This document shows positions 7,160-24,612 of a DNA stretch of 61,382 bases, piece by piece. Source of the DNA: an uncultured Spirochaetales bacterium (GTDB lineage Bacteria; Spirochaetota; Spirochaetia; JABMQR01); the NCBI GenBank assembly GCA_964605195.1, contig CAZSBC010000001.1, positions 1-61,382 of the forward strand. Reading direction: 5' to 3'. The position numbers were made by a program, and so were the translations under genes. Within the stretch, counting starts at the first letter, position 1. The number at the start of each line of letters is the position of its first letter. A model generated the notes under the pieces. That model made no database searches, was not told the origin of the DNA, and worked only from the letters and a program-made list of their open reading frames with translations.

Positions 7160-8038
7160 ATGAAACAGCATAATCTCTATGCACGGGATTTCTTCAGCGA
7201 TGCCCAGCTCAAACTGACAGTGATCGAGAGAGATCCGCAGACCCCCTTTCCGCTTCATTCACACGACTTCTCAGAACTCGTAATCGTATTCAGGGGAAGT
7301 GGGACCCATTTCACGGAAGAGCACTCCTATGAGGTATCAGCAGGTGATGTCTTCGTGATTGAGCGGGGTTTCAGCCACGGCTATGAAGCTATCAAAGAGC
7401 TGGCTCTCTATAACATTCTCTTTGATGAGGCCCTGCTGCGGCAACTCTCCTTTGATCTCGGATCAATGCCGGGATACCATGCCGTTTTCACCATGGAGCC
7501 GAAACTGCGCCTCCAGCATGCCTTCAAGAGCCGCCTGAAACTTACCGGTGAGCAACTGAAAAACTGCCGGCAACTGCTGACGAGAATGAGCGTAGAGCTT
7601 CAGAATCCGGCCCTGGAGGAGGGCAGCCGCTCACTTGCCCTGGCCTATTTCATTGAGCTGATCGTCTACATTGCCCGGATGTATTCACGGATGCGCATAG
7701 ATGACACGAAAGAGATCATGCAGATGTCCGATATCATTGCCTTCATGGAGACCCATATACACAGCCAGATTACCATCGAGGAGCTGGCCTCCATGGCCAG
7801 CATATCAGCCAGCACCCTGCATCGCCTCTTCCTGAAGAGCCTGGGCTGTTCCCCTATCGAGTACCATATCCAGTTGAAGGTTGACCATGCTGCCAGGCTG
7901 CTGACCCATTCCCGGCTCTCTGTGACCGAGATTGCCGAGAGTTCCGGCTTCAGGGACAGCAACTACTTTTCCCGGCAGTTCAGAAAACGGATGGGTTCCA
8001 GTCCCCGGGAGTACCGGAAAAAACGCCACCTGCTGTAA
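7160..8038 (+). CDS. AraC-family transcriptional regulator with an N-terminal cupin domain (RhaS/RhaR-like)
   Basis: 292 aa. It has a cupin-type sensor (PLHSHDFSELVIVFRGSGTH) and a C-terminal double HTH (SNYFSRQFRKRMGSSPREYR). It is divergent from rhaA. There is no SD sequence; a CATTAT hexamer lies 6 nt upstream of the ATG. Confidence 0.85.
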   Translation: MKQHNLYARDFFSDAQLKLTVIERDPQTPFPLHSHDFSELVIVFRGSGTHFTEEHSYEVSAGDVFVIERGFSHGYEAIKELALYNILFDEALLRQLSFDLGSMPGYHAVFTMEPKLRLQHAFKSRLKLTGEQLKNCRQLLTRMSVELQNPALEEGSRSLALAYFIELIVYIARMYSRMRIDDTKEIMQMSDIIAFMETHIHSQITIEELASMASISASTLHRLFLKSLGCSPIEYHIQLKVDHAARLLTHSRLSVTEIAESSGFRDSNYFSRQFRKRMGSSPREYRKKRHLL

Positions 8039-8106: not shown

Positions 8107-8724
8107 TCAGAACATATAGGTAACCGAAACCTTCGGGAAGGGCAGGAACTCAATATCACCAAAGCCTCCGGCATCTTCGGCATCGGCAAAAACATTGAGA
8201 TTCGGTGTTATGAAATAGGCACCGGCCTCAACCGACAGATTGCCCCAATCATACCCGACAGAGGCGCCAAGGGCTGCCCCGGCAGTCTGAAACATGAATG
8301 TATCGGTATCGTTGATGAAATCGTAATCGGCAGCGATGAACCCGGCTACCAGTTCACCGTCCAGGAACCAGGAATTGACATAGGGGGAGAGATAGTAGCG
8401 GGCACCGGCCTCTACAAGACCGATGGCGGCAAACGATCCCGGATTGGTGGCATCGCTCTGGAGTATCTGGGTCAGCCAGTAGGAGACCCGTAAGAGCGGA
8501 GCCACGGTAGCCTTCAGCTCCAGCCGGTCGGTCAGCCCGTAGTGAATCGTGGGACCGCCGAGGAACTCTGTCAGATCCAGGCTGATAAAGAGGGTGGGCA
8601 TCGTCAGGTCCGCCCCCAGCCGCATTCTGCCGGCTCGGTCAGCTACCTCACGGTGAGCGTCAGCAAAGAGCAATCCGCTGCCGGCAATGATCAGTATGGC
8701 CAAAATCAGTAGTAATTTTTTCAT
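8107..8724 (-). CDS. Small outer-membrane beta-barrel protein (function unknown)
   Basis: 205 aa. It has a signal peptide (MKKLLLILAILIIAGSGLLFA), alternating hydrophobic beta-strand patterns and a C-terminal aromatic signature (VSVTYMF). A strong AAGGAGG RBS is present. Confidence 0.6.
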   Translation of the reverse strand: MKKLLLILAILIIAGSGLLFADAHREVADRAGRMRLGADLTMPTLFISLDLTEFLGGPTIHYGLTDRLELKATVAPLLRVSYWLTQILQSDATNPGSFAAIGLVEAGARYYLSPYVNSWFLDGELVAGFIAADYDFINDTDTFMFQTAGAALGASVGYDWGNLSVEAGAYFITPNLNVFADAEDAGGFGDIEFLPFPKVSVTYMF

Positions 8725-8852
8725 GTAATCCTCCTTACTACCAGTTCATGTATGTACTTCAGATACAGTTGCTAAACAACTGACTTCCTACTATGTTACA
8801 GTATAACAATACTCATGTATTTGCAGCTCGTGTACATATAATGAGAATTTCG

Positions 8853-8861
8853 TGCTATAAT
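8853..8861 (+). promoter_or_regulatory. Extended -10 element TGCTATAAT, 9 nt upstream of ATG 8871
   Basis: Read directly from the sequence. There is no Shine-Dalgarno sequence between it and the ATG. Confidence 0.4.
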
Positions 8862-8870
8862 AGGCATATC

Positions 8871-9560
8871 ATGAAAGCCAGCGTTCACAGAATGGGGACC
8901 TGCAAACTCTCACCCGCACAGCAGTTAGAACACTGTACCATGCTGCTCATTCTGCAGACGGCTCTCTTATGGTTCTTTGCAATGAATGCCTATGCTGGGA
9001 AATTCATGTTCTGGAAGTATGCCGTGAGTTATCTCGGAGCGGTACGAACAGTGAATGATCTGGACAATACTCCTTCACGAATCTGGTTTGTGCTCTCCAT
9101 GCTCATCAGCGCCTGCTTCATGCTCAGAATGGCGGCTATCTGCAGAGAACAGCAGATTGTCAACGGCAATATCTATCGTGTGCTCTACACGCTGGGAAGT
9201 ATCGGATCCCTGATCATCTGCTGTCCCAAGGATATCTCACAACCAGTCCATGCAACGGGAGCGGGACTGCTGGTATTCAGTCATGTGATGCTCTCCCTGA
9301 CCCGCATCACAGTCCAGAGCAGGCTGCTCAAAACCCGCAGCATGGTAATCCGCCTGCTGATCCTGCTTATCCCGGTACTTGCATACGCCTACTGCTGGGT
9401 AATGTGGATTGAGACCGTGGTGCAGCTAATCCAGAAATTTGCCTTTGCCGCCCTCTTCTATGTGGGAATCATCACCTCGAAGGAGAGCCTTGTCAGCCGG
9501 GAGGAGAAACTCCTCTTCTTTAGCCCCTCCCCTGGTGACAGAATTCTCGGATCAAGCTGA
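8871..9560 (+). CDS. Integral membrane protein, DUF998/Frag1-like (function unknown)
   Basis: About 6 hydrophobic segments and a SYLGA motif reminiscent of DUF998 proteins. The start is uncertain: the ORF is open from 8793, and in-frame ATGs occur at 8871, 8892 and 8940. Confidence 0.5.
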   Translation: MKASVHRMGTCKLSPAQQLEHCTMLLILQTALLWFFAMNAYAGKFMFWKYAVSYLGAVRTVNDLDNTPSRIWFVLSMLISACFMLRMAAICREQQIVNGNIYRVLYTLGSIGSLIICCPKDISQPVHATGAGLLVFSHVMLSLTRITVQSRLLKTRSMVIRLLILLIPVLAYAYCWVMWIETVVQLIQKFAFAALFYVGIITSKESLVSREEKLLFFSPSPGDRILGSS

Positions 9561-9562
9561 TC

Positions 9563-10996
9563 TCAGCAATTCGGCTGGTAGCTGGAAAAATCATGATACG
9601 TACGGATCAGCGCCCTTCCCTCCTGCAGGGAGGCTAAATCCCCGGTTGCCAGGGCTTGCAGCATGATGTTACCCAGGGCTGTTGCCTCCACCGGTCCAGC
9701 CGAAACAGTTCTTGCGGCCGCATCGGCAGTCCACTGATTCATGATCGTATTCCTTGAACCTCCCCCAATGATGTAGATATGGCTGTAGTGTGTGCCGGTT
9801 ATCACCTCAATCTGATCTGCATACCGGGCATAGGCCTGTGCCAGGCCTCTGTAGATGGCAACCATGTATTCACCCTTTCTGACTGGAACAGGCATGTCAT
9901 GCTCCCGGCAGTAACTACAGATGCGCTCCGGCATTGAGTCTCCCTCAGAATTGGGTTTCAGGAAACGACCGTCATTGGGATCAATTACTCCCGTAAAGCC
10001 GGCGCACTCAAGGGTCTCCGCGTCAAGCTCAGCAAAGGTGATTGTCTCGCCCCCGGCTTCCCAGCTGCGGAGGGACTCCTGCTGTATCCACATTCCCATG
10101 ATATTCTTGAGAAAGCGTATCCTGCCATTGGCAGCACCCTCATTGGTGAAGTTGTACTCAAGACTCTTCTGCGTGATATACGGCGTATCGGACTCTATGC
10201 CCAGCAGAGACCACGTTCCGCTGCTGAGATAGAGATAGTTGCCCTCCTCCATTGATGGTACAGCCGCAACAGCAGAAGCTGTATCATGCGAACCGCAGGC
10301 AATTACCGGTACTGCTCCCACAGCTCCCACCTCAGCGGCGACATCATCCCTCAGGCTGCCCAGGACTGTTCCGCTGGGCACAATCCTGCCGAACATCCCG
10401 GGATTGAGATCCAGCTTCTCTATCAGACCCCAGGCCCAGTCACCACTCTCCGGATTGAACAGCTGGGTTGTCGTTGCATGGGAGAACTCATTTGCCATGA
10501 CACCGCACAGCCAGTAGCTGAGCAGATCCGGAATGGAGAGATAGTGCCTAGCAGCCTGCAGCAGCTCCGGCTCCACGCTGCGCATTGCAGCCAGCTGGAA
10601 GATGGTATTCAGCTGCATGAACTGGATACCGGTAGTAGCGTAGATCTCCCTGGCAGGAACCTTCGCGAACACCTCCTCCATCATGCCGTCGGTTCTACTG
10701 TCACGATAGTGATAGGGCATACTGATGAGATTTCCGGCTGCATTGAGCAGCCCGTAATCCACTCCCCAGGTATCAATGCTGATACCTGCAATCTCTCCCT
10801 CTCCCGGATAGAGCGAAAAGGCCTCTTTGATACCCTTCTTTATCTGTGAGAAGATATAGAGGATATCCCAGTAGATGTGTCCCCCGACCTTGTCGTTACG
10901 GGTTACAAACCGGTTGGTGACGGTAAAGCCGCAGAGATCTCCAACAATGACTCTTCCATTAGATGCACCCAGATCAATCGCAATGTACTTCTTCAT
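9563..10996 (-). CDS. rhaB: Rhamnulokinase (FGGY family)
   Basis: 477 aa. It carries the motifs IAIDLGASNGR, IDTWGVDYGLL and FLKNIMGMWIQQE, plus a C-terminal IIGGGSRN, all typical of RhaB-type kinases. A GGAAGG RBS is present. Confidence 0.85.
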   Translation of the reverse strand: MKKYIAIDLGASNGRVIVGDLCGFTVTNRFVTRNDKVGGHIYWDILYIFSQIKKGIKEAFSLYPGEGEIAGISIDTWGVDYGLLNAAGNLISMPYHYRDSRTDGMMEEVFAKVPAREIYATTGIQFMQLNTIFQLAAMRSVEPELLQAARHYLSIPDLLSYWLCGVMANEFSHATTTQLFNPESGDWAWGLIEKLDLNPGMFGRIVPSGTVLGSLRDDVAAEVGAVGAVPVIACGSHDTASAVAAVPSMEEGNYLYLSSGTWSLLGIESDTPYITQKSLEYNFTNEGAANGRIRFLKNIMGMWIQQESLRSWEAGGETITFAELDAETLECAGFTGVIDPNDGRFLKPNSEGDSMPERICSYCREHDMPVPVRKGEYMVAIYRGLAQAYARYADQIEVITGTHYSHIYIIGGGSRNTIMNQWTADAAARTVSAGPVEATALGNIMLQALATGDLASLQEGRALIRTYHDFSSYQPNC

Positions 10997-11017
10997 CTTT
11001 GCCTTCCAGTTTGAACG

Positions 11018-12277
11018 CTATGCATGATGCAGCAGATATTGCTCTGCTTCCAGGCACCATAGCCCGTTGTTCCGGTCCACAATGATCGCCAACTCCGCAA
11101 AAAGAGGATTCTGTTTCCCTGCTTCGGCAAAATCGGCAATTGCTGTCAACGGCAGGTCGAGGTGGGTATAGATCAGTTTCTTTCCGCCGGGGATAGCGGG
11201 CAGCTCAAGAATGGTATCAATAACCGCATTCAGCCCCCCGATATGGGTGATCATCGCTGCAGGGTTCAGTTCGCCCCTCTCCATCATGGCCAGTGACTCA
11301 CGCATATCCTCAGTGTTTCCTCCGCTGGTACCCACCAGGTGATGGGCGGCATAGTGCACATCATAGAAATTTATCATGGCGGAGAAGTCACTGCTGCCGG
11401 GTCCGGCGAAAAAGTTCAGACAGCCATCTTTGCCGAGAATTTTATCGCCCTGCTCCACGACCGGCTTTACCGGGGCCATCACCAGCACATCATCATACCC
11501 GCTGCCCCCTGAAATCTCCATGAGCTCAGCCACCGGATCTTCGGATTCAGCCGTATTGACATAGACGAGCTGCACCCCCATCTCGGCAGCATGCTCCGGT
11601 GAATAGAGCTCTTTGGCACGTGCAAGACGGGCACTGTCGATATCGGTCACCACAAGCAGCCCGGGCCTGCGGTCACAGTGGAGGGCGTAGTCAATGGATC
11701 CGAGGCCCATGGGGCCCACACCGGCAAGGATCGCCATCTTGCCTCCGGGAACTATCCCCATATTGTGGATATACTTACCCTGAGGTATGTGGTACATCGC
11801 ATGGAAGGTGCCCACAATGCAGGATACCGGCTCTGCCAGGGATCCCATGAAGAAGGCATCCCCGTTATAGGCAAGCAGACAATCCATCTCCATCACCTCA
11901 TTGGGAATGATCACGTGGGTTGCGTTTCCGCCTATCCAGCGGAACGAGTACCCGGGAGCGTCCAGGCTTCCCTTGTAGTTCAGGGCCGGCTGAATGGAGA
12001 ATTTATCTCCTTTACTGAATTTGTGGGCCCATTTAGCCCCGACTTCTTGAATAACGCCGCAGAATTCATGTCCCAGCATGGTGGGGTTAACCGCGATATC
12101 ATTGGGGATACGTTTGTGATCCGTCCCCTGGTTGGCAGCCTTATGGGATGACATGCAGATACTGTTGGTGATGACCTCAGCAAGTATCTCATCATCCCCC
12201 AGCTCCGGCAGCTCAAATGATTCCAACCGGAGATCTCTCTTTCCATATATTCTCACCGCTTCTGTTTTCTGTCCCAT
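11018..12277 (-). CDS. Zn-dependent medium-chain dehydrogenase, L-sorbose-1-phosphate-reductase-like (SorE-like)
   Basis: 419 aa, longer than ordinary MDR enzymes and similar in size to SorE. It has the GHEFCGVIQEVG zinc motif and a Rossmann motif (AILAGVGPMGLG). Confidence 0.7.
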   Translation of the reverse strand: MGQKTEAVRIYGKRDLRLESFELPELGDDEILAEVITNSICMSSHKAANQGTDHKRIPNDIAVNPTMLGHEFCGVIQEVGAKWAHKFSKGDKFSIQPALNYKGSLDAPGYSFRWIGGNATHVIIPNEVMEMDCLLAYNGDAFFMGSLAEPVSCIVGTFHAMYHIPQGKYIHNMGIVPGGKMAILAGVGPMGLGSIDYALHCDRRPGLLVVTDIDSARLARAKELYSPEHAAEMGVQLVYVNTAESEDPVAELMEISGGSGYDDVLVMAPVKPVVEQGDKILGKDGCLNFFAGPGSSDFSAMINFYDVHYAAHHLVGTSGGNTEDMRESLAMMERGELNPAAMITHIGGLNAVIDTILELPAIPGGKKLIYTHLDLPLTAIADFAEAGKQNPLFAELAIIVDRNNGLWCLEAEQYLLHHA

Positions 12278-12350
12278 ACTACTAACTCCTCTTCAGACTA
12301 TGCCTGATCGATTTCCCGCTTCCTGCAGGAATAAATCCGTGTACAGCAGA

Positions 12351-13526
12351 TCAGTTCAGCATCACCTGTCCACCGGTAACCGGTACAGCCTGACCCGTCT
12401 CATACTGCTGTTCCACAATATAATAGATCGCCTTCATGACATCGGCAACGGTGCAGCCGCGGTTCAGCGGCACCTTGCTCTCATAGAACCTTCTCACATC
12501 GGCAATGGTCACTGCACCGGGAACCTTGCCGGCATTGAGGTACTGCACGAACAGTCCCCGCTCGGGATCCGACCACAGCGGTCCGTCAAGGAAGTTTCCC
12601 GGACAGACGGCATTCACCTTGATTGAATCGCTTACCAGCTCAAGGGCGAAACTCTGCGTCAGCCCGATCGTCCCGAACTTGGCCCCGGAATAAGCTCCAT
12701 TCTTGTTTGAGCCCTCCAGCCCCGATTTTGAGCTTATCGCAATGATATCGGTGAAGTAGCTTTCAGCGGCCCGGTTCTGGTAACTCATCAGCCTGGCGGT
12801 AAATTTGGTGCAGATGAAGAATCCCGTATAGTCCACCGAAGTGACGAAGTTGAAATCCTCCAGCGCCATCTCCTTTACACTGCCGGCCCTCAGTACCCCC
12901 GCGTTGCTTATCATGATATCGAGACCGCCCACCCGCCTGGCCACAAAGGCCAGCATGGCAGCAACCGAATCCTCATTGGTTACATTCACCTCAACGGCAC
13001 AGGCGACCTCCCGGCCGGATGACCGGTTCAGTTCATCGGCGAGCCTGCCGGCTCCGGCAATATTCATGTCGGCTATGAAGGTGTATGCCCCGGCAGCGAC
13101 CAGTTCCCGAACCATACCCTCACCGAAGCCCTGGGCCCCGCCGGTAACCAATGCGGTCTTTCTCCGTACCACATCGTTCCGGTCCGTGGAGCCCCGTTCT
13201 CCTGGAAGCCTGGAACAGCCGTCCATGGCGGAAGCCTCCTCAAGGGTGGCCCCAAGCCCGATGACGCGTGAATCATCAACGGTCAACCTGGAAGGATACC
13301 GGCCATGCTCTGCCACGAAGGCAGCACAATCCTCCTTCAGCTGCTGCAGCACAGAGGGAATATTCTCCTCCGTACAGCACCCAGCAGTCACGGAAACCTC
13401 CCCTATCGGGACATCTTTGCCCTCCAGGGACTGCATGGTCACGAACACTCCACTGAACCCATCAAAGGTGAGCCCGCGGAGATACGGAGGAATAATTGTG
13501 TCCCATGCGTTATCATATCGTTTCAT
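12351..13526 (-). CDS. Short-chain dehydrogenase (sorbitol-6-phosphate-dehydrogenase-like) with an N-terminal domain of about 120 aa and unknown function
   Basis: The SDR core has TALVTGGAQGFG, NAG and YSGAKFG (YxxxK) motifs. ATG 13526 overlaps the upstream stop by 4 nt, which supports the long N-terminus. Confidence 0.75.
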   Translation of the reverse strand: MKRYDNAWDTIIPPYLRGLTFDGFSGVFVTMQSLEGKDVPIGEVSVTAGCCTEENIPSVLQQLKEDCAAFVAEHGRYPSRLTVDDSRVIGLGATLEEASAMDGCSRLPGERGSTDRNDVVRRKTALVTGGAQGFGEGMVRELVAAGAYTFIADMNIAGAGRLADELNRSSGREVACAVEVNVTNEDSVAAMLAFVARRVGGLDIMISNAGVLRAGSVKEMALEDFNFVTSVDYTGFFICTKFTARLMSYQNRAAESYFTDIIAISSKSGLEGSNKNGAYSGAKFGTIGLTQSFALELVSDSIKVNAVCPGNFLDGPLWSDPERGLFVQYLNAGKVPGAVTIADVRRFYESKVPLNRGCTVADVMKAIYYIVEQQYETGQAVPVTGGQVMLN

Positions 13527-14893
13527 TTCCCAAACCTCTTGAACTTCCTTGCCAGTGCTTCCATATTCACACGTCCCTGTCTGGGATCCATATCCCGGCC
13601 TATCTCTGCATACATCGCAATCCTCTCCCGCAGGGTTCTATCACGGTAGGGGTTATCCCCATGGAAGAGCGCGAAAGAGGGATCGATAACAGCCAGCTTC
13701 TCATGGGCAACCAGTGCCCAGGCGGAATCAACCAGATGCCTGAACTCAGGCTGCAGCAGCTGCGGGCAGTTGAATTGCTGCCGTGAGGAGTTGATATCGA
13801 CACCACTGATCTGCATCAGCTCATACCGCTCTGACAGCTCCTGCACCCGAAGAAGCTGCTCCCTGGTATTCCTCGGAGGCATATAGGTTACAGCGCTAAA
13901 CCCCAGCTCCTTGAGCAGCGGGAAGAGCTTATCGAGAAAGGCATCCTCGAACTGCTCGGCCCGTTTATCCCCGGTAGGACTCTCAGTCACATCCCCGAGG
14001 TAGGCATAGGCCGCTATTGCACCGATACGTCCGGCAAAGGCGGTTACCTCTTCGGCCTCCAACGTCTCCCGTCGCGAAGGCTGAATGAAGAACTTTCCCA
14101 GGAAACCGCTTTTCAGCACCCCGATAAGATCGTACCGGTAGTGGGGGTTTTCAGTATCCAGCAGATATCCCCTGATCTTCACCGGCAACACCAGGGAGAG
14201 CCGCTCCTCCAGAAAGGCGACTGCCGCTGCTCCCCTGCCGATTTCATGAATAATCTTTCCGGCAAAGGCAGAGAGTATATGGCGTTCGGTGATACTCCCC
14301 TCCCGGTCATTGACACAGCGGGAAAGCGGAACCACATCCTGCTCGAAATTGATCGGGGACAGCCCATACGGCGCAAGAAGGGCATTCAGCGCCTCCACCT
14401 CAGCCCGGTTGCGCCGGTTGCGCTGTGCAACCAGCGGGGCTAGGAAATCCGCGCACTCACCGATACGGTTCTCGGGGACCCCGTGCACACACATGTAGGC
14501 AATGCCCGCAGAGTCGGGATTGTTGATCTTCCTATCCCGAAGCGGTGTACTAAGAAAACTGCAGCGCACCTCAAACCCCACTGTGGTGGCAATACCGAAA
14601 TCTTTGCCGACCTGGAGCATCTCCCCGGCAGCGGCAATACTGTCATGGTCCATGCTCCCGACAATCTGGAGTCCCGCCTCCCACGCCCTGAAGGCGGCCA
14701 TAGCCGGTTCATACGGGCTGAAAGAGCAGGTGGTGTGCACATGGTTGTTCACCTCATCGGTGGCTGTCCTGCTAACAGTTCCCTGCCTGATCGCCTTTCC
14801 AATTGAGGAAGCTGCGGCAGCCCGTTTTCCGGAATCTGCCGAATTCAGGTCAGCTATGCTCCGCAGGATATCAGCTGGATAGTACAACTTCAC
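13523..14893 (-). CDS. PHP-domain (polymerase/histidinol-phosphatase-type) metal-dependent phosphoesterase
   Basis: 456 aa. It has the N-terminal HVHTTCSFS and GSMDHDS metal-binding motifs of PHP domains. The GTG start overlaps the E1 stop (GTGA, 14890-14893). Confidence 0.7.
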
Positions 14894-17346
14894 ACCCCCA
14901 GGCGCTGAAGCCTGACCAGTTCACCTTCCGTCTGTACCGTGGACACACGATAATCCTTCAGCGGCAGGATCTGCTCATGCAGGGCATCAATGATCCACTC
15001 CGGCTGCGGGAAGAAGAGGTCCTCCATCTCGGCCGGCGGGGTTATCCAGTTCCGCGATCCGACTACAACCGGCGGGGCATCAAGATAATCGAACGCCAGC
15101 CTGCTTATGTTGGATGCAACGGTATGGAGGAACGAACCCCGCTCACTTGCATCCGATGAGAGCAGCACCCGTCCGGTCTTTTTCACCGAATCGACAAGCG
15201 GCTCATAGTTCAGCGGGTTGATGAACCGCAGGTCGATAACCTCCGCCTCAAGCCCGTGCTCAGCCGAAAGTTTCTCGGCCGCCTCCATGGCCGTATAGAG
15301 CGTAGCCCCGATGGTTATGATCGTCAGGTCCTTTCCGCTCCTGCGGAGTGCCGGCTCACCCTCGGGAACTTCGTAGTAGCCCTCGGGAACTCCTTCGGCG
15401 ACAAACTGCTCACCGATACCGTAGAGCTTCTGGCTCTCGAAGAATACCACAGGATCGGTGCCCCGGAGGGCAAGGTTCAGCATTCCCTTGGCATCGTAGG
15501 GAGTCGCGGGGAACATCACTTTCAACCCTGGAATGTGGGCGGTGATGGCAGTCCAGTCCTGTGAGTGCTGGGCACCATACTTATTCCCTACCGATACCCG
15601 CAGGACAAGCGGCATCTTGAGCACACCAGCGCTCATCGACTGCCACTTGGGCATCTGGTTGAAGATCTCGTCTCCGGCCCGGCCCATGAAGTCACAGTAC
15701 ATCAGTTCGACTACGGCCCGCCCCCCGGCCATGGCATACCCGACTCCGCTGCCGACGATTGAGGCCTCTGAGATGGGCGAGTTGAAGAGTCTGTGGTAGG
15801 GAAGCAGCTCAGTAAGCCCCCGATAGCAGGCAAAGGCACCACCCCAGTCACGGTTCTCCTCACCGTAGGCCACCATGGTGGGATCGGTGGTAAAGCCGTG
15901 CAGCATGGCTTCGAACACAGCATCCCGATAGGCATATAGCCTGGCAGATGAGACCTTTTTACCATTTTCGTCGAGGTAAAAACGCTTTTTCCGGGCAATC
16001 TGCTTTACCCGATCGTTATCTTCGGGATTCTGCAGCAACTCCGGCTCACCCTCATCAAGGGCTGGCTCATTGCCGTTTGAGAACATCACCGACTCGATGA
16101 ACCCGCCGTTGACATGTGGTGAGAGTTCATCATCTATGGCAAGCCCCATTGTCTTCCTGATCTTGGCCGCCACTTCATCCGCAAGGGCTGCAACTTCGTC
16201 AGCAGGGATAACCCCGTTTTCAACAAGATACTCACCGAATGATACGACGCTGTCCTGCGCCTTGAAGGTATCCATCTCCTCACGGGACCGGTATGAGGAG
16301 GCATCTGAGGGAGAATGGCCTGATAGCCGGTAGGTTATGGTATCCATCAGTACCGGGCCGCGCCCCTCCAGCAGGACGCTCTTCTTCCTTGCCACGGCAT
16401 CGGCAACAGCGAGGGGGTTGAATCCGTCAACCCGCTCGGCATGCATGCCGTCCGGGTTTACTCCATAGCCGATCCTGGCCGGAGTGCCATATCCCATGGT
16501 TTCACCTGCTGTCTGCCCCCCCATACCGTAGAAGTTGTTGAAGACATTCAGCATGTAGGGCGGAGCTCCTGCCATGTCACCCCAGAGCGTGTGGTACTGA
16601 TCCATGGCGGAAAGCATCAGGCCCTCCCATACCGGACCGCAGGCCATGGCGGCATCCCCGATATTCGCGATGACAATTCCGGGTTTGCGGTTTATCTTCT
16701 TGAACAGGGCAGCTCCGACGGCGATATCGCCTGAACCGCCGACAATGGCGTTGTTCGGCATGCTGCCGAAGGGGGCAAAGAAGGTGTGCATCGAACCGCC
16801 GAGACCGCGACTGAATCCGGTTTTCCGGGCAAATATCTCAGCAAGGGCACCGTAGAGCACGAAATTCTCGGCCAGATCCCTGATATCCTCACCGGGAAAC
16901 TGCTTCTCCACCACAGCGAGCACATCCCCCCCCATGAACTCTTTCATGACGGTATCAAGGCCCTGCTCCTCTATCTTCCTGATTGCCGAGAAACACTTTG
17001 CCAGAATCTCACCGTGGGAACGGTGGGAGCCGAAGATGAAATCTTCGGGATCCAGGCTCGCGCACTGTCCTACTGCCGCCGACTCCTGCCCGATAGAGAG
17101 GTGGGCTGGTCCTCGGTGGTTGTAGGAGAGACCGCCGTAGGAGCCCTCCTTCTTGATCTGGTCTAGCATCGTCTCAAACTCACGAATCAGCAGCATATCC
17201 CGGTAGAGGCTCTTCAGGCCATCTTTACCGAAGAGCTTCAGCTCCTTTTTGATATCAGGGGCATAGCTGTTCATGGGAATGGACTTGAGTTTCTCCGTCC
17301 CCCTTTTCCTCACTTCTGCAGGATCTACATCAATACTTCGTGGCAT
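14890..17346 (-). CDS. TPP-dependent 2-oxoacid/acetoin dehydrogenase E1 component, fused alpha-beta subunits
   Basis: 818 aa. The N-terminal half is alpha-like ([26 protein letters not shown]). The C-terminal half is beta-like (transketolase-pyrimidine-type and C-terminal domains: [31 protein letters not shown]). Confidence 0.85.
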
Positions 17347-17392
17347 CTTAATTCTCCTTGTACCGCTCGCTCGCTTCTCTCATTGTATAACT

Positions 17393-18757
17393 TCAGTCCA
17401 GCTCTATGGCCGTACAGACATCCTTGATTATCTCGGATACCGTCGGATGGGGGAAAATGATCTCCCGTACATCCTGCACCCGCATCTCCTGTTCCAGTAT
17501 CGCCGCTGCCCCGAATATCATCTCGCTGCAGGTTCCGCCGAGCAGGTGGATTCCCAGGATCATCCCCGTGGAGCTGTCAGCCACAACCTTGCACAGCCCG
17601 CCGGCCTTCTTCCCGAACTCAGCCAGGAAACGGCCGTTGGAGCGCATCTGGGCAGTCGCGGATACAACCTTGTACCCGGCATCAACGGCCTCCTGCCCGG
17701 TCAGGCCGCATCCGGCTGCCTCGGGTAGGGAGTAGACCACCCAGGGAACGGCATGGTAACGCATGCGTTCCGGCTCACCGAACATATCGGCGACGGCGAC
17801 TTCTGCCATGCGTGATGCGGAGTGGGCCAGCAGGGATTTGCCGGTGACATCCCCCACTGCATAGACATGTGGAAGGTTGGTCTGCATCCGGTCATTCACC
17901 GCGATACCGGCAGGGGAGTAATCAAGAGCTGTGCCCTGAGCAGACTTCATACTCTCGAGCCCGGCAACATTGGCTTTTCTGCCGACGCTGAGCAGGACCG
18001 CATCGGCTGCTGCAAACTCCTCTTCTCCCTTGGCATTCTGGTACGTCACGCCGGTATCGGTGATCCCAGTGACCCGGCAGCCGAGCCTGAAGCTGATCTT
18101 CCGCAGCTCTCTCCGCAGCAGCTTCGAGAATTCCGGCTCCATCAGCGGCACAATCTCATCCATCATCTCAATGACCGTCACAGCAGTTCCCACCGAGCTG
18201 AAGTATGAGGCAAACTCAACCCCGATCACCCCGCCCCCGATAATCACCAGCTGCTTCGGCAGTTCAGTGATCTCAAGGATCTCGGTGCTCGTCTTCACCA
18301 GCTTACTCCCGACGCCAGGTATGGGTGGTACGATCGGAGATGACCCGGTGGCAACCATGATGTTCAAGCCTTCATAGATTGTCCCGTCAACGGAGACAGC
18401 GTTCTGGCCGACAAACTCAGCCGTTCCCTGAACGACGGTCACCCCGTTCTTCTTCATCAGGAACTGGATACCCTTTCTCAAGGTCTCAATGGTTTCCTGC
18501 TTCCACTGCATTGCCCGTCCCAGGTCATAGCGTACGTCGGCACAGTCAACCCCGAACCGTCCGCCTTCCATGGCATGAACATAGTGCTTGGCGGTATTGA
18601 GCAGCGCCTTGGTTGGAATGCAGCCGGAATTGGTGCATACTCCGCCGAGATGCTCCTTCTCTACCAGCAGCACCCGCTTTCCCCGTTCTCCGGCCCGTTC
18701 AGCGGCCACGTATCCGCCGGGTCCCGCACCGATAATAATCAGATCGTATAGTTCCAT
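17393..18757 (-). CDS. lpdA: Dihydrolipoyl dehydrogenase (E3)
   Basis: 454 aa. It has GAGPGGY, the redox-active GGVCTNSGCIPTK motif and a C-terminal HPTVSE motif. Confidence 0.9.
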   Translation of the reverse strand: MELYDLIIIGAGPGGYVAAERAGERGKRVLLVEKEHLGGVCTNSGCIPTKALLNTAKHYVHAMEGGRFGVDCADVRYDLGRAMQWKQETIETLRKGIQFLMKKNGVTVVQGTAEFVGQNAVSVDGTIYEGLNIMVATGSSPIVPPIPGVGSKLVKTSTEILEITELPKQLVIIGGGVIGVEFASYFSSVGTAVTVIEMMDEIVPLMEPEFSKLLRRELRKISFRLGCRVTGITDTGVTYQNAKGEEEFAAADAVLLSVGRKANVAGLESMKSAQGTALDYSPAGIAVNDRMQTNLPHVYAVGDVTGKSLLAHSASRMAEVAVADMFGEPERMRYHAVPWVVYSLPEAAGCGLTGQEAVDAGYKVVSATAQMRSNGRFLAEFGKKAGGLCKVVADSSTGMILGIHLLGGTCSEMIFGAAAILEQEMRVQDVREIIFPHPTVSEIIKDVCTAIELD

Positions 18758-18776
18758 TTCACCTCTCCAGCCGCAC

Positions 18777-20123
18777 TCACTGCATCATCAGCAGGTCGAT
18801 ATTCCCTATATTCTCACTCAATCCCTTGAGGAACCTTGCTCCGGGAGCCCCATCCACTGCCTGGTGGTCGATGGTCAGCGACAGGCTGATATGGGGGAGA
18901 AACTCCACTCCACTGCCGTCACGGCCATCAACCGGCTTCAGGCTGATCCCACCGACCCCGAGAATGGACGTCTGAGGAGTATTGAGCACAGGTGTGAACT
19001 CCTCGACTCCCATGGCCCCGAGATTGGTGACGGTGAAGGTACCGCCCTCCATCTGCTCGGGCTTCAGCCGGCCATCCTTGGCGGCAGCCGCCAGGGAGCG
19101 GGCCTGCTCAGATAGCTCCCTGAGGGAGAGGGTATCGGCAAATGGAATCACCGGCACCATCAGTCCCCGTTCAGTATCGACAGCCATGCCGAGGTGGACA
19201 TGGTCGAACTCCCTGATCGTTGTACCGAGGAAATGGGTGTTGACATAGGGAAACTTAAGGATAGTCCTTGCTACGGCAAAGAGGATCAGGTCATTGATTG
19301 AGATGGTATTCAGGCCAAGTTCCGGGGCACTTGCTTTCAGCCGTGACCTCAGGGCTTTCAGCCGGACGGCCTCGGCGCTGCCGTGGAGCGTCAGCTGGCA
19401 GGTTGTCGAGATCGACTGGTACATCCGCTCAGCGGTGATCTTGCGGATCGAGCGTACCGGGATATCACGGGCTACTCCGGGAAACTCCACTGGTTTATTG
19501 TCATGGAGACTCTTTTCGGTTGATGCCCTTCCGGCAAGGTCACCAACGGTGACCCGCCCCCCGATGCCGCTTCCTTCGACAGCTGCACCGCCACCTCCGG
19601 CAGCAGCTGCTGCCGATGTGTAGAGCAGCGCATCCTTCTGCCGGGCAACAACATCCCGCTCAATAACGCGCCCGTGAGGTCCGGTACCCGCTATTCCTTC
19701 CAGAGGGATATGGGCATGTTCGGCAAGTTTCCGTGCCCTCGGTGATACTGCTGCCCCCTCTGCAGCTGCAACGACCGGCTGAACCGGCACATCAGGTTCA
19801 GGAGCTGGTACCGCGGCGACCTCTGCAGGAGGAGCTTCAGCACCTGCTGCTTCAGATTCGGCCATGAAGCCAGAAATATCCTCACCAGCCTCCCCGACTA
19901 TAGCCAGGGGTACCAGCACGGGAACCTCTTCGTCAGCCGCATAGAGCTGTTTCAACAGAATACCAGCTGCTGTTGATTCGATATCGACAGTTGCCTTGTC
20001 AGTTTCTGCCTCACAGAGGACATCCCCGATCACCACCGATTCTCCCTCTGCAATTTTCCACTCCAGAATAATGCAAGTCTCTACCGAGTTTCCCAGTTTT
20101 GGCAACAACACCTGCTCTGCCAT
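18777..20123 (-). CDS. Dihydrolipoamide acyltransferase (E2): lipoyl domain, Ala/Pro linker, subunit-binding domain and catalytic domain
   Basis: The lipoyl-lysine motif is EAETDKATVDIES. The PSBD is SPRARKLAEHAHIPLEGIAGTGPHGRV. The catalytic motif is DHQAVDGAPGARF. ATG 20123 has an AAGGAG RBS. The ORF-track start at 20171 is an upstream extension. Confidence 0.9.
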   Translation of the reverse strand: MAEQVLLPKLGNSVETCIILEWKIAEGESVVIGDVLCEAETDKATVDIESTAAGILLKQLYAADEEVPVLVPLAIVGEAGEDISGFMAESEAAGAEAPPAEVAAVPAPEPDVPVQPVVAAAEGAAVSPRARKLAEHAHIPLEGIAGTGPHGRVIERDVVARQKDALLYTSAAAAAGGGGAAVEGSGIGGRVTVGDLAGRASTEKSLHDNKPVEFPGVARDIPVRSIRKITAERMYQSISTTCQLTLHGSAEAVRLKALRSRLKASAPELGLNTISINDLILFAVARTILKFPYVNTHFLGTTIREFDHVHLGMAVDTERGLMVPVIPFADTLSLRELSEQARSLAAAAKDGRLKPEQMEGGTFTVTNLGAMGVEEFTPVLNTPQTSILGVGGISLKPVDGRDGSGVEFLPHISLSLTIDHQAVDGAPGARFLKGLSENIGNIDLLMMQ

Positions 20124-20186
20124 GCTTCGCTCCTTTTCTTTCGTTACCGGCCACACTCGCTGCCGGCGCACATATCCGCATCTCTC

Positions 20187-20939
20187 TTATACACACATCA
20201 CCTCAACACCCTGCTCCCGAAGCAGCTCTGCTGCATGGGCGGGAAGGTTGGAATCAGTGATGATGATGTCAATATTCTCTATCGGGAGAATCTTAATGAA
20301 TCCCTTCCTGCCGTATTTTGAGGAATCGACGACAACAACGCGTTTCTCAGCCTGTTCGCACATTTTGCGCACGATCTCGGCATTCTCAATCAGATGCGTC
20401 GTCATGCCGTACGCATCGGTAAAGCCATCAGTACCGGAAATCGTCATCGATACATGGAACTGGTCGAGCCGTTTGATTGCTTCCGGCCCCACCATGGCCT
20501 CGGCTGAGGGCCTGAACTCTCCCCCGATGAACGTCAGGGTCATATTCGGATTCACACGGGCATACGGAAGCAGCAGCGTGGAGTTGGTGACGATCTGGAG
20601 ATCACGTTTCCCAAGCAGGTACTTCCCGACAAGCGCCGAGGTGGTCCCGTTCGTGATCATGATCCGGTCACCGTCGGAGACCAGCGCGGCAGCGGCTGCC
20701 GCTATGCGCTCCTTCTCCTGGAGATGGCTCGATTTCTTCTGCAGCATATCGGGATGGAAAGCCGGTATGGCGCCGCCGTGTGACCTGATTATCATACCCT
20801 GTTCTTCCAGTGATCTCAGGTCGTTTCGTACCGTGACCACTGAAACCTCCAACAGCCTGCTCAGCTCAGAGACGGTCATCTCTGAATCAGCCCGGAGGTA
20901 TTCCAGTATTCTGGATTCACGCTTTGTATTTCCTGCCAT
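20187..20939 (-). CDS. DeoR-family transcriptional regulator
   Basis: The N-terminal HTH (RESRILEYLRADSEMTVSELSRLLEVSVVTVRNDLRSLEEQG) is followed by a DeoR C-terminal sugar-phosphate sensor domain. ATG 20939 has an AAGGA RBS. The ORF-track N-terminus (to 21056) is Lys-rich read-through of the promoter region. Confidence 0.85.
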   Translation of the reverse strand: MAGNTKRESRILEYLRADSEMTVSELSRLLEVSVVTVRNDLRSLEEQGMIIRSHGGAIPAFHPDMLQKKSSHLQEKERIAAAAAALVSDGDRIMITNGTTSALVGKYLLGKRDLQIVTNSTLLLPYARVNPNMTLTFIGGEFRPSAEAMVGPEAIKRLDQFHVSMTISGTDGFTDAYGMTTHLIENAEIVRKMCEQAEKRVVVVDSSKYGRKGFIKILPIENIDIIITDSNLPAHAAELLREQGVEVMCV

Positions 20940-20958
20940 CACGCTTTCCTTGTATTTA

Positions 20959-21011
20959 CTTTTTACTTTCTTTTCTCTTTCTATATTATTTCTTTTTACT
21001 TTCTTAGTCAA
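20959..21011 (-). promoter_or_regulatory. Sigma70-like promoter (TTGACT-17-TAATAT) with two copies of a 14-nt direct repeat; candidate DeoR operator
   Basis: On the minus strand, the -35 TTGACT is at 21011-21006 and the -10 TAATAT is at 20988-20983. The repeat AAGAAAGTAAAAAG (plus strand CTTTTTACTTTCTT) occurs at 20992-21005, inside the spacer. It occurs again at 20959-20972, just downstream of the predicted start. Confidence 0.5.
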
Positions 21012-21196
21012 TAGCACCGGCTTAATTTCGCATAGTATGTATCGATTGCCTTTCACTGCGCATATCCTATTCTCCCATAGGTAAGCATGTCATATTAAGC
21101 GTTTGCAACGGATAGCCAATCCTTACTAGTGGGTAATTACCATATGTTGTTGAAGATGTTCAAAGCGCAAAAAAAGAGTGGAAATTACCTTCTGGC

Positions 21197-21205
21197 TGCT
21201 ATATA
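21197..21205 (+). promoter_or_regulatory. Extended -10 element TGCTATATA, 8 nt upstream of ATG 21214
   Basis: Read directly from the sequence. There is no SD sequence before ATG 21214. Confidence 0.4.
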
Positions 21206-21213
21206 CTGCTTTC

Positions 21214-22962
21214 ATGAGTACTTTAATACCAACTCCGCACTCCTGGGATGAGCTGGAAGCCTACCGAGCGCTACCAGAAACCGAGGAGCTTCATATTGAC
21301 GGGGAATGGCCCACAATTCCCGAAATGGTGGAAATAAGCGCCGCCAGATTCCCGGACCGTCCCTGCTTCACCGTATTCGATCCCGACAGACGTGTCATGA
21401 ACTATGCTGAGGTCTCCAAGCGCTGCAAGAAGATAGCCATGAGCTTCCGTGATGCCGGGATAGTGCCCGGAGACCGTATCGCTGTTACCGGGAAAAACAG
21501 CCCGGAGTGGGCCCTTGCCTATCTGTCGGTCCTCTATGCCGGTGCCGTGGTTGTCCCCATTGATTACCAGCTGCCGGTTTCCCAAGCTGCCAAGCTGATT
21601 ACCTTTGCAGCTTGTACCTATGTATTTACCGACCACGAGAAGCTGGAAGAGCTATCCCAGCTTCTCGGTAACTCGCTTAAGCGTATCTACTCCCTTGAAG
21701 CGGGATATCCGAACCATATCTCCATGCTAAAAAGCCGTAAGAAGTACCGCAAGCCATTGATAGATGAAGATTCCCTTGCGGCCATTCTCTTCACTTCCGG
21801 TACAACCGGTAATGAGAAAGGCGTCATGCTCTCCCACAAGAATTTCGTCACCGACGTATATCAGGCCTGTGACCCGGAATTCATCACGGCCACAGAAGAG
21901 GATGTCTTCTATGCCCTGCTGCCCCTGCACCACAGCTACTGCATGACGGCTGTCTTTCTTGAGGGACTCAAGCACGGCTCGGAACTGGTCTTCGCAAAAT
22001 CCTTCGTGGTGCGGAAGATCATCGAGGACATGCAGAATTCAGGTGTTACGGTATTCATGGGTATCCCCCTGCTCTTCAACAAGTTCCTTGCTGGTGTACT
22101 TCGGAAAGTACGCGAGAAGGGCGTGGTCACCTATGCCGTTGTCCGTATCCTCATGTCCATCAACGGGGTACTGAAACGCCGTTTCGGTCTCAATCCCGGA
22201 CGTGCCAAGTGGTTCAGGCCAATTCTCGAAGGGCTCGGCTTCGCCAAGATAAACTTCTGCATCAGTGGCGGTGGCCCGCTTCCTGCCCGGACTTTCCACC
22301 GCTTCCAGCAGCTCGGCCTCGACTTTGTGCAGGGGTACGGGCTCACTGAAACAGCTCCCATAGTGACACTAAATCCCATAGCGCACTTCAAGCTCACCTC
22401 AGTCGGTAAACTGCTACCCTTCATCGATATACGGATCGACAATCCCGACCATACCGGCACCGGTGAAATATTTGTCAAGGGGCCCAATGTCACCCGGGGC
22501 TACTACCGTGATCCCGACCACACAGCCGAGCTCTTCAGTGATGACGGGTACCTCAAAACCGGGGACCTCGGATACCTGGATGACGAGAACTACCTCTATC
22601 TGCGTGGGCGCAAGAAGAATATGATTGTCACCGAGGGGGGAAAGAATGTCTATCCGGAAGAGATCGAGGATGAATTTCAGCTCTATCCAGCAATAGATCA
22701 GATCATGGTCGCCGGGTATCTGATGGATGCTTCCAGGCAGGCCGAGGGCATTGAGGCCCTGATCTTCCCGAGCCGAGAATACTTTGGCGAATCCTTCCAG
22801 GATACCGAAGTTGTCCGCTCAGAGATAGATACGGCTGTCAGGGAGGTAAACCAGCGGTTTCCGGGCTACAAGAAGATTACCCGCATCACCTTGCTTGATG
22901 AGCCGATGGATATGACCTCCACCAAGAAGATCAAGCGCAATAAGGTACAGCGTACCGGGTAG
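21214..22962 (+). CDS. Long-chain-fatty-acid--CoA ligase (AMP-binding enzyme)
   Basis: It has the AMP-binding signature ILFTSGTTGNEKGVMLSH, plus GYGLTET and TGDLGYLDDENYLYLRGRKKNMI. The start is ATG 21214, or alternatively GTG 21178. Confidence 0.85.
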   Translation: MSTLIPTPHSWDELEAYRALPETEELHIDGEWPTIPEMVEISAARFPDRPCFTVFDPDRRVMNYAEVSKRCKKIAMSFRDAGIVPGDRIAVTGKNSPEWALAYLSVLYAGAVVVPIDYQLPVSQAAKLITFAACTYVFTDHEKLEELSQLLGNSLKRIYSLEAGYPNHISMLKSRKKYRKPLIDEDSLAAILFTSGTTGNEKGVMLSHKNFVTDVYQACDPEFITATEEDVFYALLPLHHSYCMTAVFLEGLKHGSELVFAKSFVVRKIIEDMQNSGVTVFMGIPLLFNKFLAGVLRKVREKGVVTYAVVRILMSINGVLKRRFGLNPGRAKWFRPILEGLGFAKINFCISGGGPLPARTFHRFQQLGLDFVQGYGLTETAPIVTLNPIAHFKLTSVGKLLPFIDIRIDNPDHTGTGEIFVKGPNVTRGYYRDPDHTAELFSDDGYLKTGDLGYLDDENYLYLRGRKKNMIVTEGGKNVYPEEIEDEFQLYPAIDQIMVAGYLMDASRQAEGIEALIFPSREYFGESFQDTEVVRSEIDTAVREVNQRFPGYKKITRITLLDEPMDMTSTKKIKRNKVQRTG

Positions 22963-23998: not shown

Positions 23999-24429
23999 CA
24001 ATGGACTACCACGCCCTTCTTCAGAATGATATTCGCGTAGAGGGCGGTCTCCCCACTGCTTATCACTGCATAGGCATCCCTGGCCCGTTCATAGAATGCA
24101 AAGCGTTCAAGCTGGGAACATGCCCTGTAGTGCTCGTCATGCAGGCGCAGGATCCGGTCATACTCCTGCCATATCGGGGTCTCGACAGTATCTCCGGGAG
24201 TGACCTCCATGAGGATAGCATGCTTATCATCGTACTGATCCAGGGGGAAAAACTGCATCATGGCATCAAGTATCGCAGGGATACCATGGCCGTCAAGACG
24301 GATCAACCGTCTTCCGATGCTTGCGCTGGGAAAGTTACCGTCTCCGATAACCAGTTCATCTCCATGGCCCATCTCCATGAGAATTTTCAGCAGTTCCGGT
24401 GAGAGCAGGTCGGGAATATGCTTCAACAT
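23998..24429 (-). CDS. fucU: L-fucose mutarotase (RbsD/FucU family)
   Basis: The 143-aa product begins MLKHIPDLLSPELLKILMEMGHGDELVIGDGNFP, which is typical of FucU. An AAGGAG RBS precedes ATG 24429. The ORF-track start at 24525 is an extension. Confidence 0.85.
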   Translation of the reverse strand: MLKHIPDLLSPELLKILMEMGHGDELVIGDGNFPSASIGRRLIRLDGHGIPAILDAMMQFFPLDQYDDKHAILMEVTPGDTVETPIWQEYDRILRLHDEHYRACSQLERFAFYERARDAYAVISSGETALYANIILKKGVVVH

Positions 24430-24547: not shown

Positions 24548-24612
24548 CTAGTATATCATATAATCACAGGTTTGCAACAGCAATCCGGAGTGTGGTTTCC
24601 AAGGAGCACAAT

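Follow-up and report, generated by a model that had tools for sequence, protein, structure and literature searches.

We analysed a cluster of eight minus-strand genes at 9563-20939 of a 61,382-nt stretch of DNA (the window; GCA_964605195.1, contig CAZSBC010000001.1) from an uncultured Spirochaetales bacterium, and profiled the cluster and its neighbors against Pfam and the curated family models of NCBIfam. In the order of transcription, the genes encode a DeoR-family regulator (20187-20939), an E2 dihydrolipoamide acyltransferase with lipoyl, E3-binding, and 2-oxoacid_dh domains (18777-20171), an E3 dihydrolipoyl dehydrogenase (17393-18757; TIGR01350, 456 bits against a cut-off of 408.8), an 818-aa fused E1 alpha-beta of a distinct clade that depends on thiamine pyrophosphate (TPP) (14890-17346), a 456-aa metal enzyme assigned by fold comparison to the PHP fold, with a helical insertion (13523-14893), a 391-aa SrlD-like short-chain dehydrogenase/reductase (SDR; 12351-13526), a 419-aa SorE/YggP-like, Zn-dependent ketose-1-phosphate reductase with ADH_N and ADH_zinc_N domains (ZDH, for Zn-dehydrogenase; 11018-12277), and a RhaB-like FGGY kinase, the sole sugar kinase of the locus (KIN; 9563-10996). 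The best family of KIN is rhamnulokinase TIGR02627 (441 bits, below the cut-off of 528), and the FucK model scores 149 bits. Profiling all eight proteins confirmed the eight same-strand genes that an earlier note on this DNA had read as one unit, and the block is conserved across genomes. The genes are separated by gaps of 15, 19, 46, 73, and 21 nt, and both of the 4-nt overlaps claimed before, at 14890-14893 and 13523-13526, were found there. Catalytic motifs are intact in E1 (GDA...NN), E2 (lipoyl DKA and DHQAVDG), E3 (CTNSGC), and the SDR (TGGAQGFG and YSGAK).

The first gene matches HTH_DeoR at 155.8 bits and DeoRC at 58.6 bits, which places its product in the DeoR family; it reaches no curated equivalog cut-off. 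Its open reading frame extends to 21056, and the start is most likely the ATG at 20939, giving ~251 aa, because the helix-turn-helix domain begins at residue 46 of the reading frame and orthologs have 251 aa. Upstream, at 20959-21011 on the minus strand, lies a promoter-like element with repeats that is, on the repeat statistics, a candidate DeoR operator. An exact 13-nt direct repeat, AGAAAGTAAAAAG, at 20992-21004 and 20959-20971 brackets the -10 element of a TTGACT-17-TAATAT match (21011-20983, minus strand). This repeat has a chance expectation of 0.04, and two copies occurred in 0 of 100 shuffles. Hence, of the sigma70-like promoter with repeats that had been described here, the repeats stand. 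The promoter match alone does not, as promoter-like sites in the region are not above chance (10 versus 7.2 ± 2.5 in shuffles), and scans for sigma-70 promoters and terminators returned no more sites than shuffled sequence. Position 21011, previously given as the end of the cluster, is the first base of the promoter-like -35 element rather than a start codon. DeoR would probably repress the operon at the 13-nt repeats, responding to a sugar phosphate.

To place the cluster among genomes, we scanned for relatives of the PHP protein with one genome per species, which gave at least 591 species genomes with a relative, and compared the neighborhoods of the best 80 of these loci by tblastn with the window proteins; L-numbers below designate loci. 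A neighbor was counted when it was adjacent to the PHP gene and on the same strand, and the denominators are the loci with enough flanking sequence; organism labels of these genomes are those given in the records. Adjacency to PHP was found for E1 in 63 of 67 loci, for E3 in 55 of 62, for E2 in 54 of 59, for the SDR in 69 of 70, for ZDH in 63 of 64, and for KIN in 48 of 58. All six neighbors occurred together in 39 of 52 loci, so that conservation of gene order in related genomes, a test set beforehand, held. The DeoR gene lies upstream of E2 in 43 loci. The order E2-E3-E1-PHP-SDR-ZDH-KIN is found in most of the 80 independent species genomes, and the arrangement is therefore not due to chance. 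Carriers comprise dozens of species of anaerobic bacteria; they are mostly Sphaerochaetaceae and other Spirochaetia, and include Atribacterota, metagenome-assembled genomes (MAGs) labeled proteobacterium, Bacteroidetes, and Anaeromyxobacter. Synteny with the window is greatest in a Spirochaetales MAG (L007). The same eight genes in the same order occur in Parasphaerochaeta coccoides and in a 4.4-Mb European Nucleotide Archive contig; cultured and sequenced carriers are Sphaerochaeta pleomorpha Grapes and P. coccoides.

The flanks of the cluster contain entry enzymes for two 6-deoxyhexoses. On one side in the window are an AraC-family (RhaS/RhaR-like) regulator gene (7160-8038, plus strand), the divergent gene for the L-rhamnose isomerase RhaA, the rhamnose entry enzyme (5774-7048, minus strand; 648 bits, cut-off 572), and a gene for a RhaE-like class II aldolase-family protein (ALD; 4662-5777, minus strand). 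On the other side, past an AMP-binding ligase-like gene, are a LacI-family regulator (22964-24001, minus strand), the FucU/RbsD mutarotase (23998-24525, minus strand), and the L-fucose isomerase FucI, the fucose entry enzyme (24592-26433, plus strand). The last two, just past DeoR, had been overlooked, and the link of the cluster to 6-deoxyhexoses now holds through both rhaA and fucI. A RhaS-type rhamnose ABC substrate-binding protein is encoded at 169-1188 (minus strand; TIGR02637, 432 bits, cut-off 342). The position of the AraC gene is kept in L002-L004, L007-L009, L087, and L088, and the LacI gene recurs beside the cluster in ~19 loci. The rhaA-ALD pair stands beside the cluster in L002-L004, L007-L009, L024, and L035, and fucU/fucI lie directly upstream of E2 in three gut-derived loci (L039, L053, and L078), with no aldolase found within 10 kb. 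The loci of S. pleomorpha and P. coccoides read FucI, FucU, AraC, RhaA, ALD, ABC transporter, RhaM, and then the eight genes. Both of these species and the window combine the two entry modules, rhaA and fucI, with one kinase, and loci in which fucI is present as well have no kinase other than KIN. No FucA, FucK, or FucO was found in the S. pleomorpha and P. coccoides loci or in the window, which is likewise without AldA and RhaD, as is the locus itself; genes for iron-dependent alcohol dehydrogenase, aldehyde dehydrogenase, and microcompartments were absent from all 61 kb, including the remaining 35 kb. In L064, L072, and L082 the next gene after the cluster encodes a transketolase; in L068 and L080 the transketolase gene is one position farther downstream.

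The two dehydrogenases resemble those of L-sorbose catabolism, as had been predicted for both. Over 99% of its length, ZDH shares 52-53% identity with the annotated sorE products, L-sorbose-1-phosphate reductases, of Serratia, Klebsiella, and Citrobacter and with E. coli yggP, and it ranks with the best-conserved proteins of the cluster (57-82% identity between loci). No sorbose phosphotransferase system (PTS) gene (sorFBAM) was found in the locus. For the SDR, the best family is sorbitol-6-phosphate dehydrogenase NF009050 (225.7 bits, cut-off 307), and the best annotated relatives are srlD genes (36% identity). Its SDR domain starts at about residue 120, and all stand-alone orthologs keep the ~120-aa N-terminal extension; we considered this extension as a remnant of ALD and ruled that out, with no BLAST similarity and no Pfam match. 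MtlD-like hexitol-phosphate dehydrogenases belong to the cluster in L077 and L058, in the latter as a fusion with PHP, and one lies upstream in L070. Taken together, these homologies are good evidence, at the level of sequence, for a sorbose-type series in which a ketose 1-phosphate would be converted to a hexitol phosphate and then to a ketose phosphate with its keto group at the other end.

The same gene set would also accommodate the reverse order, as the sequence data leave the order of the dehydrogenases free. The SDR would then oxidize C5 first, yielding a 6-deoxy-2,5-hexodiulose 1-phosphate similar to the archaeal 6-deoxy-5-ketofructose-1-phosphate, the complex would remove the acetyl unit, and ZDH would reduce the resulting C4 keto-aldehyde phosphate. 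We regard this order as distinctly improbable: homology favors a hexulose 1-phosphate as the substrate of ZDH and a hexitol phosphate as that of the SDR, the arrangement of the sorbose pathway, and in a furanose 6-deoxy-ketohexose the C5 hydroxyl would be tied up in the ring, whereas prior reduction of C2 would free it.

We then considered the dehydrogenase complex. The earlier note read it as acetoin-type, and the scores agree that E1 is not a bona fide pyruvate dehydrogenase (PDH) E1, with E1 below every curated PDH cut-off (alpha half, 177 bits on TIGR03182, cut-off 394; beta half, 234 bits on NF006667, cut-off 321). E2 scores 278 bits on TIGR01349 (cut-off 445), and among the complex subunits E3 alone passes a PDH cut-off (456 versus 409). 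The alpha half is only distantly related to E1 alpha chains of solved structure, scoring ~94 bits to human PDH E1 alpha. Within the cluster, E1 shares 65-83% identity with its orthologs. Outside it, the nearest relatives are encoded on Rhizobium pRL8, Agrobacterium pAt, and a Pleomorphomonas plasmid; they are fused E1s that match the entire alpha half at 47-48%. After each of these come a small lipoyl protein, an AcoC-like alpha/beta hydrolase, and a SorC regulator, and each has as a neighbor a sugar kinase, a sugar ABC transporter, FucU/RbsD, a sugar-phosphate isomerase, or a mannitol-dehydrogenase-family gene. Small sugar-linked plasmid clusters in which a fused E1 precedes a small lipoyl protein, with the AcoC-like hydrolase in the alphaproteobacterial ones, lie at L083 12001-16484, L089 7366-13534, L090 9001-16047, and L092 1-5689; they carry a SorC-type regulator and PfkB or FGGY kinases, sugar ABC transporters, or a mannitol-dehydrogenase-family gene, and we found no published description of them. 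The Pleomorphomonas set (xylB, E1, lipoyl protein, acoC, and SorC-type regulator) would fit cleavage of 1-deoxy-xylulose-5-phosphate. A more distant fused E1 from Arthrobacter (29% identity) is accompanied by a class II fructose-bisphosphate aldolase, a lipoyl protein, and an FGGY kinase. Outside the fused clade, the best alpha matches in PLSDB (32%, E = 9e-29) belong to an operon with an E2 annotated as an acetoin dehydrogenase subunit; a pdhA-annotated gene is a weaker match (30%, E = 4e-22). Because of the contexts of its nearest relatives and the Aco-type operon of the next-best alpha matches, the E1 clade appears, as judged from homology and gene context, to be linked to sugars and acetoin-type partners rather than to pyruvate.

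We hypothesize that these activities form one route, for which we infer every substrate and product from the observed gene content, order, conservation, and homologies. RhaA or FucI would make L-rhamnulose or L-fuculose, and the single RhaB-like kinase would form the ketose 1-phosphate. The SorE-like ZDH would reduce C2 to give a 6-deoxyhexitol 1-phosphate, and the SrlD-like SDR would oxidize C5, next to the methyl end, to give a 1-deoxy-ketohexose 6-phosphate, that is, an acetoin-like alpha-hydroxy methyl ketone; the C5 oxidation may be shared by an MtlD-like enzyme in a few lineages. E1/E2/E3 would then cleave C2-C3 via hydroxyethyl-TPP and pass the acetyl unit to lipoamide and on to CoA, reducing NAD+ and releasing a tetrose 4-phosphate. 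The sole difference between rhamnulose and fuculose lies at C4, the carbon that would become the aldehyde, and therefore both would give the same tetrose phosphate. By Fischer derivation, C3 of the ketose (3R) would become C2 of the tetrose with an L-side hydroxyl, and the product would be D-threose-4-phosphate if ZDH uses the hydride face of SorE and L-erythrose-4-phosphate otherwise. As neither of these is D-erythrose-4-phosphate, at least one further isomerization or epimerization step would be needed. We see about an even chance that the eight genes form the center of a conserved locus for L-fucose/L-rhamnose catabolism, representing a third type of route beside the aldolase and the non-phosphorylated oxidative pathways. 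Full-text literature searches found no description of such a route, in agreement with the earlier note, which knew of none. A comparative rhamnose-regulon study mentions neither such genes nor Spirochaetes (PMC3870299). As a chemical precedent, 1-deoxy-L-fructose and 1-deoxy-D-tagatose are named in two crystallography abstracts (PMC2960544, PMC2962223) together with L-rhamnitol and L-fucitol.

Clustered at 90% identity, relatives of the PHP protein number more than 3,400, and the closest of them is 63% identical. The protein had been called a PHP phosphoesterase in spite of having no Pfam match and a weak PHP-type match, and its fold bears out the PHP call. A sequence search against the PDB gave nothing useful; an AlphaFold2 model (predicted local distance difference test score 91.6) had as its top Foldseek matches 3o0f/3e0f, 9etk, and 2yb1 (BAD_1165, RNase AM, and Cv1693), with probability 1.0 and a target-normalized template-modeling score of ~0.7. 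The model thus confirms the PHP fold, its best structural counterparts being COG0613-type phosphoesterases. The HxH and DHD motifs, Glu108, and His137 are invariant. An invariant Phe58 replaces the Asp of the 3e0f 'SDG' motif, and the C-terminal D-x-H reads D366-I-N368; we take this Asp and the D-x-H, as in Cv1693, to be ligands of the third metal. The metal site of the PHP protein may be binuclear. A role as a phosphatase of the hexitol or tetrose phosphate is unlikely in our judgment, because the ATP invested by the kinase would then be lost. Being always beside E1, PHP is, with low confidence, a candidate isomerase or epimerase of the tetrose phosphate instead. Two fusions were seen among its relatives, either of which may be real or an artifact of assembly or gene calling: an 840-aa MtlD-PHP fusion (L058 8813-11335) and a 676-aa protein (P0242) that joins PHP to a Transketolase_C domain, the C terminus of E1. 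As a clue to the partner of PHP, the MtlD fusion carries little weight, being a single case in a set of 5.8 billion proteins.

ALD overlaps rhaA by 4 nt and is translationally coupled to it, as had been stated, and it accompanies rhaA in every locus with rhaA. It has a class II aldolase fold in which HxH, a third His, and the Glu of PSVE are invariant, and it scores at most 123 bits against RhaEW-type models (cut-offs 568-1240). Other class II identities were considered for it, and these comparisons do not separate them: matches of NCBIfam models for an OtnC-like decarboxylase, an AraD epimerase, or FucA were marginal (at most 22 bits), and Foldseek ranks FucA, YgbL, and AraD alike. ALD is probably a pathway component, because it is fused to the SDR inside the cluster in several lineages. 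It might be a rhamnose-linked or core accessory that reconciles the C4/C3 stereochemistry by retro-aldol cleavage or enolization, or alternatively it might run a parallel classical cleavage. Hence, the proposal that lactaldehyde is bypassed is not established, given that ALD follows rhaA in every locus with rhaA and fuses to the SDR in several lineages. RhaEW itself is a validated rhamnulose-1-phosphate aldolase/lactaldehyde dehydrogenase with the same architecture as the ALD-SDR fusions; in the published assays, neither dihydroxyacetone phosphate (DHAP) nor lactate was formed without NAD+, and the aldolase step depended on the dehydrogenase domain (PMC3870299). This NAD+ dependence bears on the order in which ALD and the SDR act. 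One of the nearest plasmid-borne relatives of ALD, a class II aldolase with ~27% full-length identity, ends an lsr-like locus of Sinorhizobium meliloti (L093 6905-8155); loci of this kind serve uptake and phosphorylation of autoinducer-2 and process a phosphorylated 1-deoxy methyl-ketone sugar.

Several observations weigh against the flip-and-cleave scheme, in which the sugar phosphate is inverted end to end by ZDH and the SDR and then cleaved by the complex. ALD is fused N-terminally to the SDR domain, in the SDR slot, in L056, L058, L085, and L086 (the L086 fusion reaches at most 228 bits, below the RhaEW cut-offs), and a 263-aa class II aldolase is part of the Atribacterota cluster. E1-E3 do not adjoin PHP in four Oceanispirochaeta/Spirochaetales MAG loci. 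The SDR, KIN, E1, and E2 all fall below the curated cut-offs of their nearest families, and the catalytic domain of the window E2 is an ordinary 2-oxoacid_dh domain and not of the AcoC type, the AcoC model matching at the lipoyl end only. The scheme gives PHP no necessary step, and by our derivation the predicted tetrose phosphate is wrongly configured for transketolase to use it directly. Of the scheme put forward in the earlier note, the flip-and-cleave core stands as the best fit to the homologies and contexts; the scheme falls short in leaving PHP without a place and the tetrose in need of an extra step.

Some of these observations would be accounted for if ALD cleaved the ketose 1-phosphate to DHAP and L-lactaldehyde, a RhaW-like SDR oxidized the latter to L-lactate, lactate were in turn oxidized to pyruvate, and the complex were a divergent pyruvate dehydrogenase, with ZDH and PHP as accessories. 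The RhaEW architecture of the ALD-SDR fusions inside the cluster and the presence of ALD in every rhaA locus point this way, as do the normal 2-oxoacid_dh domain of E2, the PDH families that are the best curated matches of E1 and E2, and an Ldh-family gene near the locus in L001 and L088; lactaldehyde is also the common product of the fucose and rhamnose pathways (PMC3870299). We nevertheless consider this reading unlikely. It has no role for ZDH, a highly conserved SorE homolog with 52% identity, nor for PHP and the MtlD-like enzymes, and the fucI-linked loci have no aldolase within 10 kb. The SDR scores 226 bits as SrlD versus 139 bits on RhaEW models, ALD is 21-25% identical to the annotated rhizobial bifunctional RhaD/RhaEW and far under the cut-offs, and E1 lies under all PDH cut-offs and has relatives with AcoC-like E2s in sugar clusters. 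Lactaldehyde-only models in which methylglyoxal or hydroxyacetone is the E1 substrate were rejected, as they leave the SorE homolog without a substrate or form formaldehyde.

ALD could instead act after the flip, splitting the 1-deoxy-ketohexose 6-phosphate into hydroxyacetone and glyceraldehyde 3-phosphate, with the complex oxidizing hydroxyacetone. The ALD-SDR fusions do suggest consecutive steps, and with the SorE hydride face C4-C6 would, by derivation, become D-glyceraldehyde-3-phosphate, for which no epimerase is needed. We think this very improbable: acetoin-type cleavage of hydroxyacetone would give formaldehyde, and no formaldehyde-handling gene was found in the loci; moreover, ALD is missing from the fucI-linked loci, and PHP is again left without explanation.

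Returning to cleavage of the flipped sugar phosphate by the complex, a more complete version can be drawn, which we put forward as speculative and rather doubtful. In it, the TPP-lipoamide complex would split 1-deoxy-ketohexose 6-phosphate to acetyl-CoA and a tetrose phosphate, and PHP, having lost its third metal, would be a non-hydrolytic isomerase or epimerase acting on the tetrose or deoxyketose phosphate, which would make the third pathway complete. The whole fused-E1 family, with its members on rhizobial, Agrobacterium, Pleomorphomonas, and Arthrobacter plasmids, would then constitute widespread and unrecognized 'deoxy-ketose (phosphate):lipoamide' C-C-cleaving systems.

Other features surround the cluster. 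The stretch between the RhaS-type protein and ALD/rhaA, at 1334-4634 (minus strand), encodes a histidine kinase and a response regulator whose output domain is of the AraC type. The regulators of the locus are thus four in number: this two-component system, AraC, DeoR, and LacI. The AMP-binding, acyl-CoA-ligase-like gene (21178-22962, plus strand) is divergent from the DeoR promoter, and further members of its family are found within or next to the cluster in L007, L066, and L080, which hints at a functional link that lies outside all of the models above. Two reading frames between AraC and the kinase (8107-8724, minus strand; 8793-9560, plus strand) have no Pfam or NCBIfam match; the second has a counterpart with 39% identity at the same position in L007 and is convergent with the kinase gene, 3 nt from its stop codon. 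In several Sphaerochaetaceae (L010, L025, L045, L062, L069, and L074), a second, xylulokinase-like FGGY kinase lies upstream of DeoR, usually accompanied by genes for an AraC regulator and a pair of small membrane proteins. In L057, such a kinase (8328-9833) is directly beside PHP, and no E1-E3, SDR, ZDH, or RhaB-like kinase was found in this 21-kb locus. Farther away in the window are a eukaryote-type hexokinase with Hexokinase_1 and Hexokinase_2 domains (48732-50114, minus strand) and, at 30452-34188 (plus strand), an amidohydrolase, an IF-2B-family (MtnA-like) protein, and a Cys/Met pyridoxal phosphate enzyme that resemble methylthio-sugar/methionine salvage and are unrelated to the cluster.

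Among the deoxy sugars of mucins, plant cell walls, and algal polysaccharides, fucose and rhamnose are major ones, and the known anaerobic routes lose half of the carbon as lactaldehyde and 1,2-propanediol. If the proposed route is correct, all six carbons would stay in central metabolism, no propanediol would be formed, and one extra acetyl-CoA would be gained, which is worth one extra ATP via acetate kinase. Predictions of cross-feeding would change for guts, sediments, and digesters, where Sphaerochaetaceae are common. Complexes of the 2-oxoacid-dehydrogenase type would gain sugar phosphates as a class of substrate, and functions would follow for a SorE/YggP paralog, for a large PHP family, and for a branch of the 'bifunctional aldolase/SDR' superfamily.

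The locus would be a variant of deoxyhexose catabolism built from known enzyme families, and several known systems resemble it in part. With the canonical rhamnose and fucose pathways (RhaA-RhaB-RhaD/RhaEW; FucI-FucK-FucA with FucO/AldA) it shares a RhaA above the cut-off, FucI, FucU, a RhaS-type protein, a RhaB-like kinase, and a RhaE-like ALD, and with the Bacillus rhamnose pathway a DeoR regulator. It differs in being without FucA, FucK, FucO, AldA, and RhaD and in the tight linkage of ZDH, the SDR, PHP, and E1-E3, which have no role in the known routes. The L-sorbose pathway offers the closest likeness for the middle steps: a ~415-aa Zn-dehydrogenase, 52% identical to SorE, adjoins an SrlD-like SDR, and the logic would be the same, reduction of the keto group next to the phosphate followed by oxidation of the penultimate carbon at the opposite end. 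Here, however, there is no sorbose PTS, and the sugars would enter by way of RhaA or FucI plus an FGGY kinase; as the far end of the substrate would be a methyl group, a methyl ketone is expected rather than fructose-6-phosphate. The cluster SDR also departs from SrlD in its ~120-aa N-terminal extension and in its score (226 versus the 307-bit cut-off).

The final cleavage has its nearest parallel in acetoin dehydrogenase (AcoA/B/C/L), an anaerobic form of which is the acetoin dehydrogenase system of Pelobacter carbinolicus. Both are systems of a TPP E1, a lipoyl E2, and an E3, the reaction proposed for the cluster (CH3-CO-CHOH-R to acetyl-CoA and an aldehyde) follows the acetoin pattern, and the closest relatives of the cluster E1 are paired with AcoC-like acetyltransferases. 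In contrast to the acetoin system, E1 alpha and beta are fused in the cluster (818 aa), the proposed substrate is a six-carbon sugar phosphate, and the regulator is of the DeoR type versus the sigma-54 AcoR. Hydroxyethyl-TPP chemistry also joins a 1-deoxy-ketose phosphate with an aldose phosphate in 1-deoxy-D-xylulose 5-phosphate synthase and in side reactions of PDH E1: point mutants of the E. coli PDH E1 (AceE) make 1-deoxy-xylulose-5-phosphate in vivo (PMC3424233). Those reactions are synthetic and start from pyruvate, whereas the cluster would run the reverse cleavage coupled to oxidation by lipoamide. The Lsr route (LsrK, LsrG, and LsrF) converts a phosphorylated 1-deoxy methyl-ketone sugar derivative to acetyl-CoA and DHAP. 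Acetyl-CoA and a sugar phosphate are thus obtained from a phosphorylated methyl-ketone sugar there as they would be here, and a distant relative of ALD is found in the S. meliloti lsr-like locus. The chemistry differs, as the Lsr route proceeds by thiolysis of a beta-diketone by a class I aldolase-like enzyme and uses no TPP, lipoamide, or NAD+, whereas the cluster would draw on all three.

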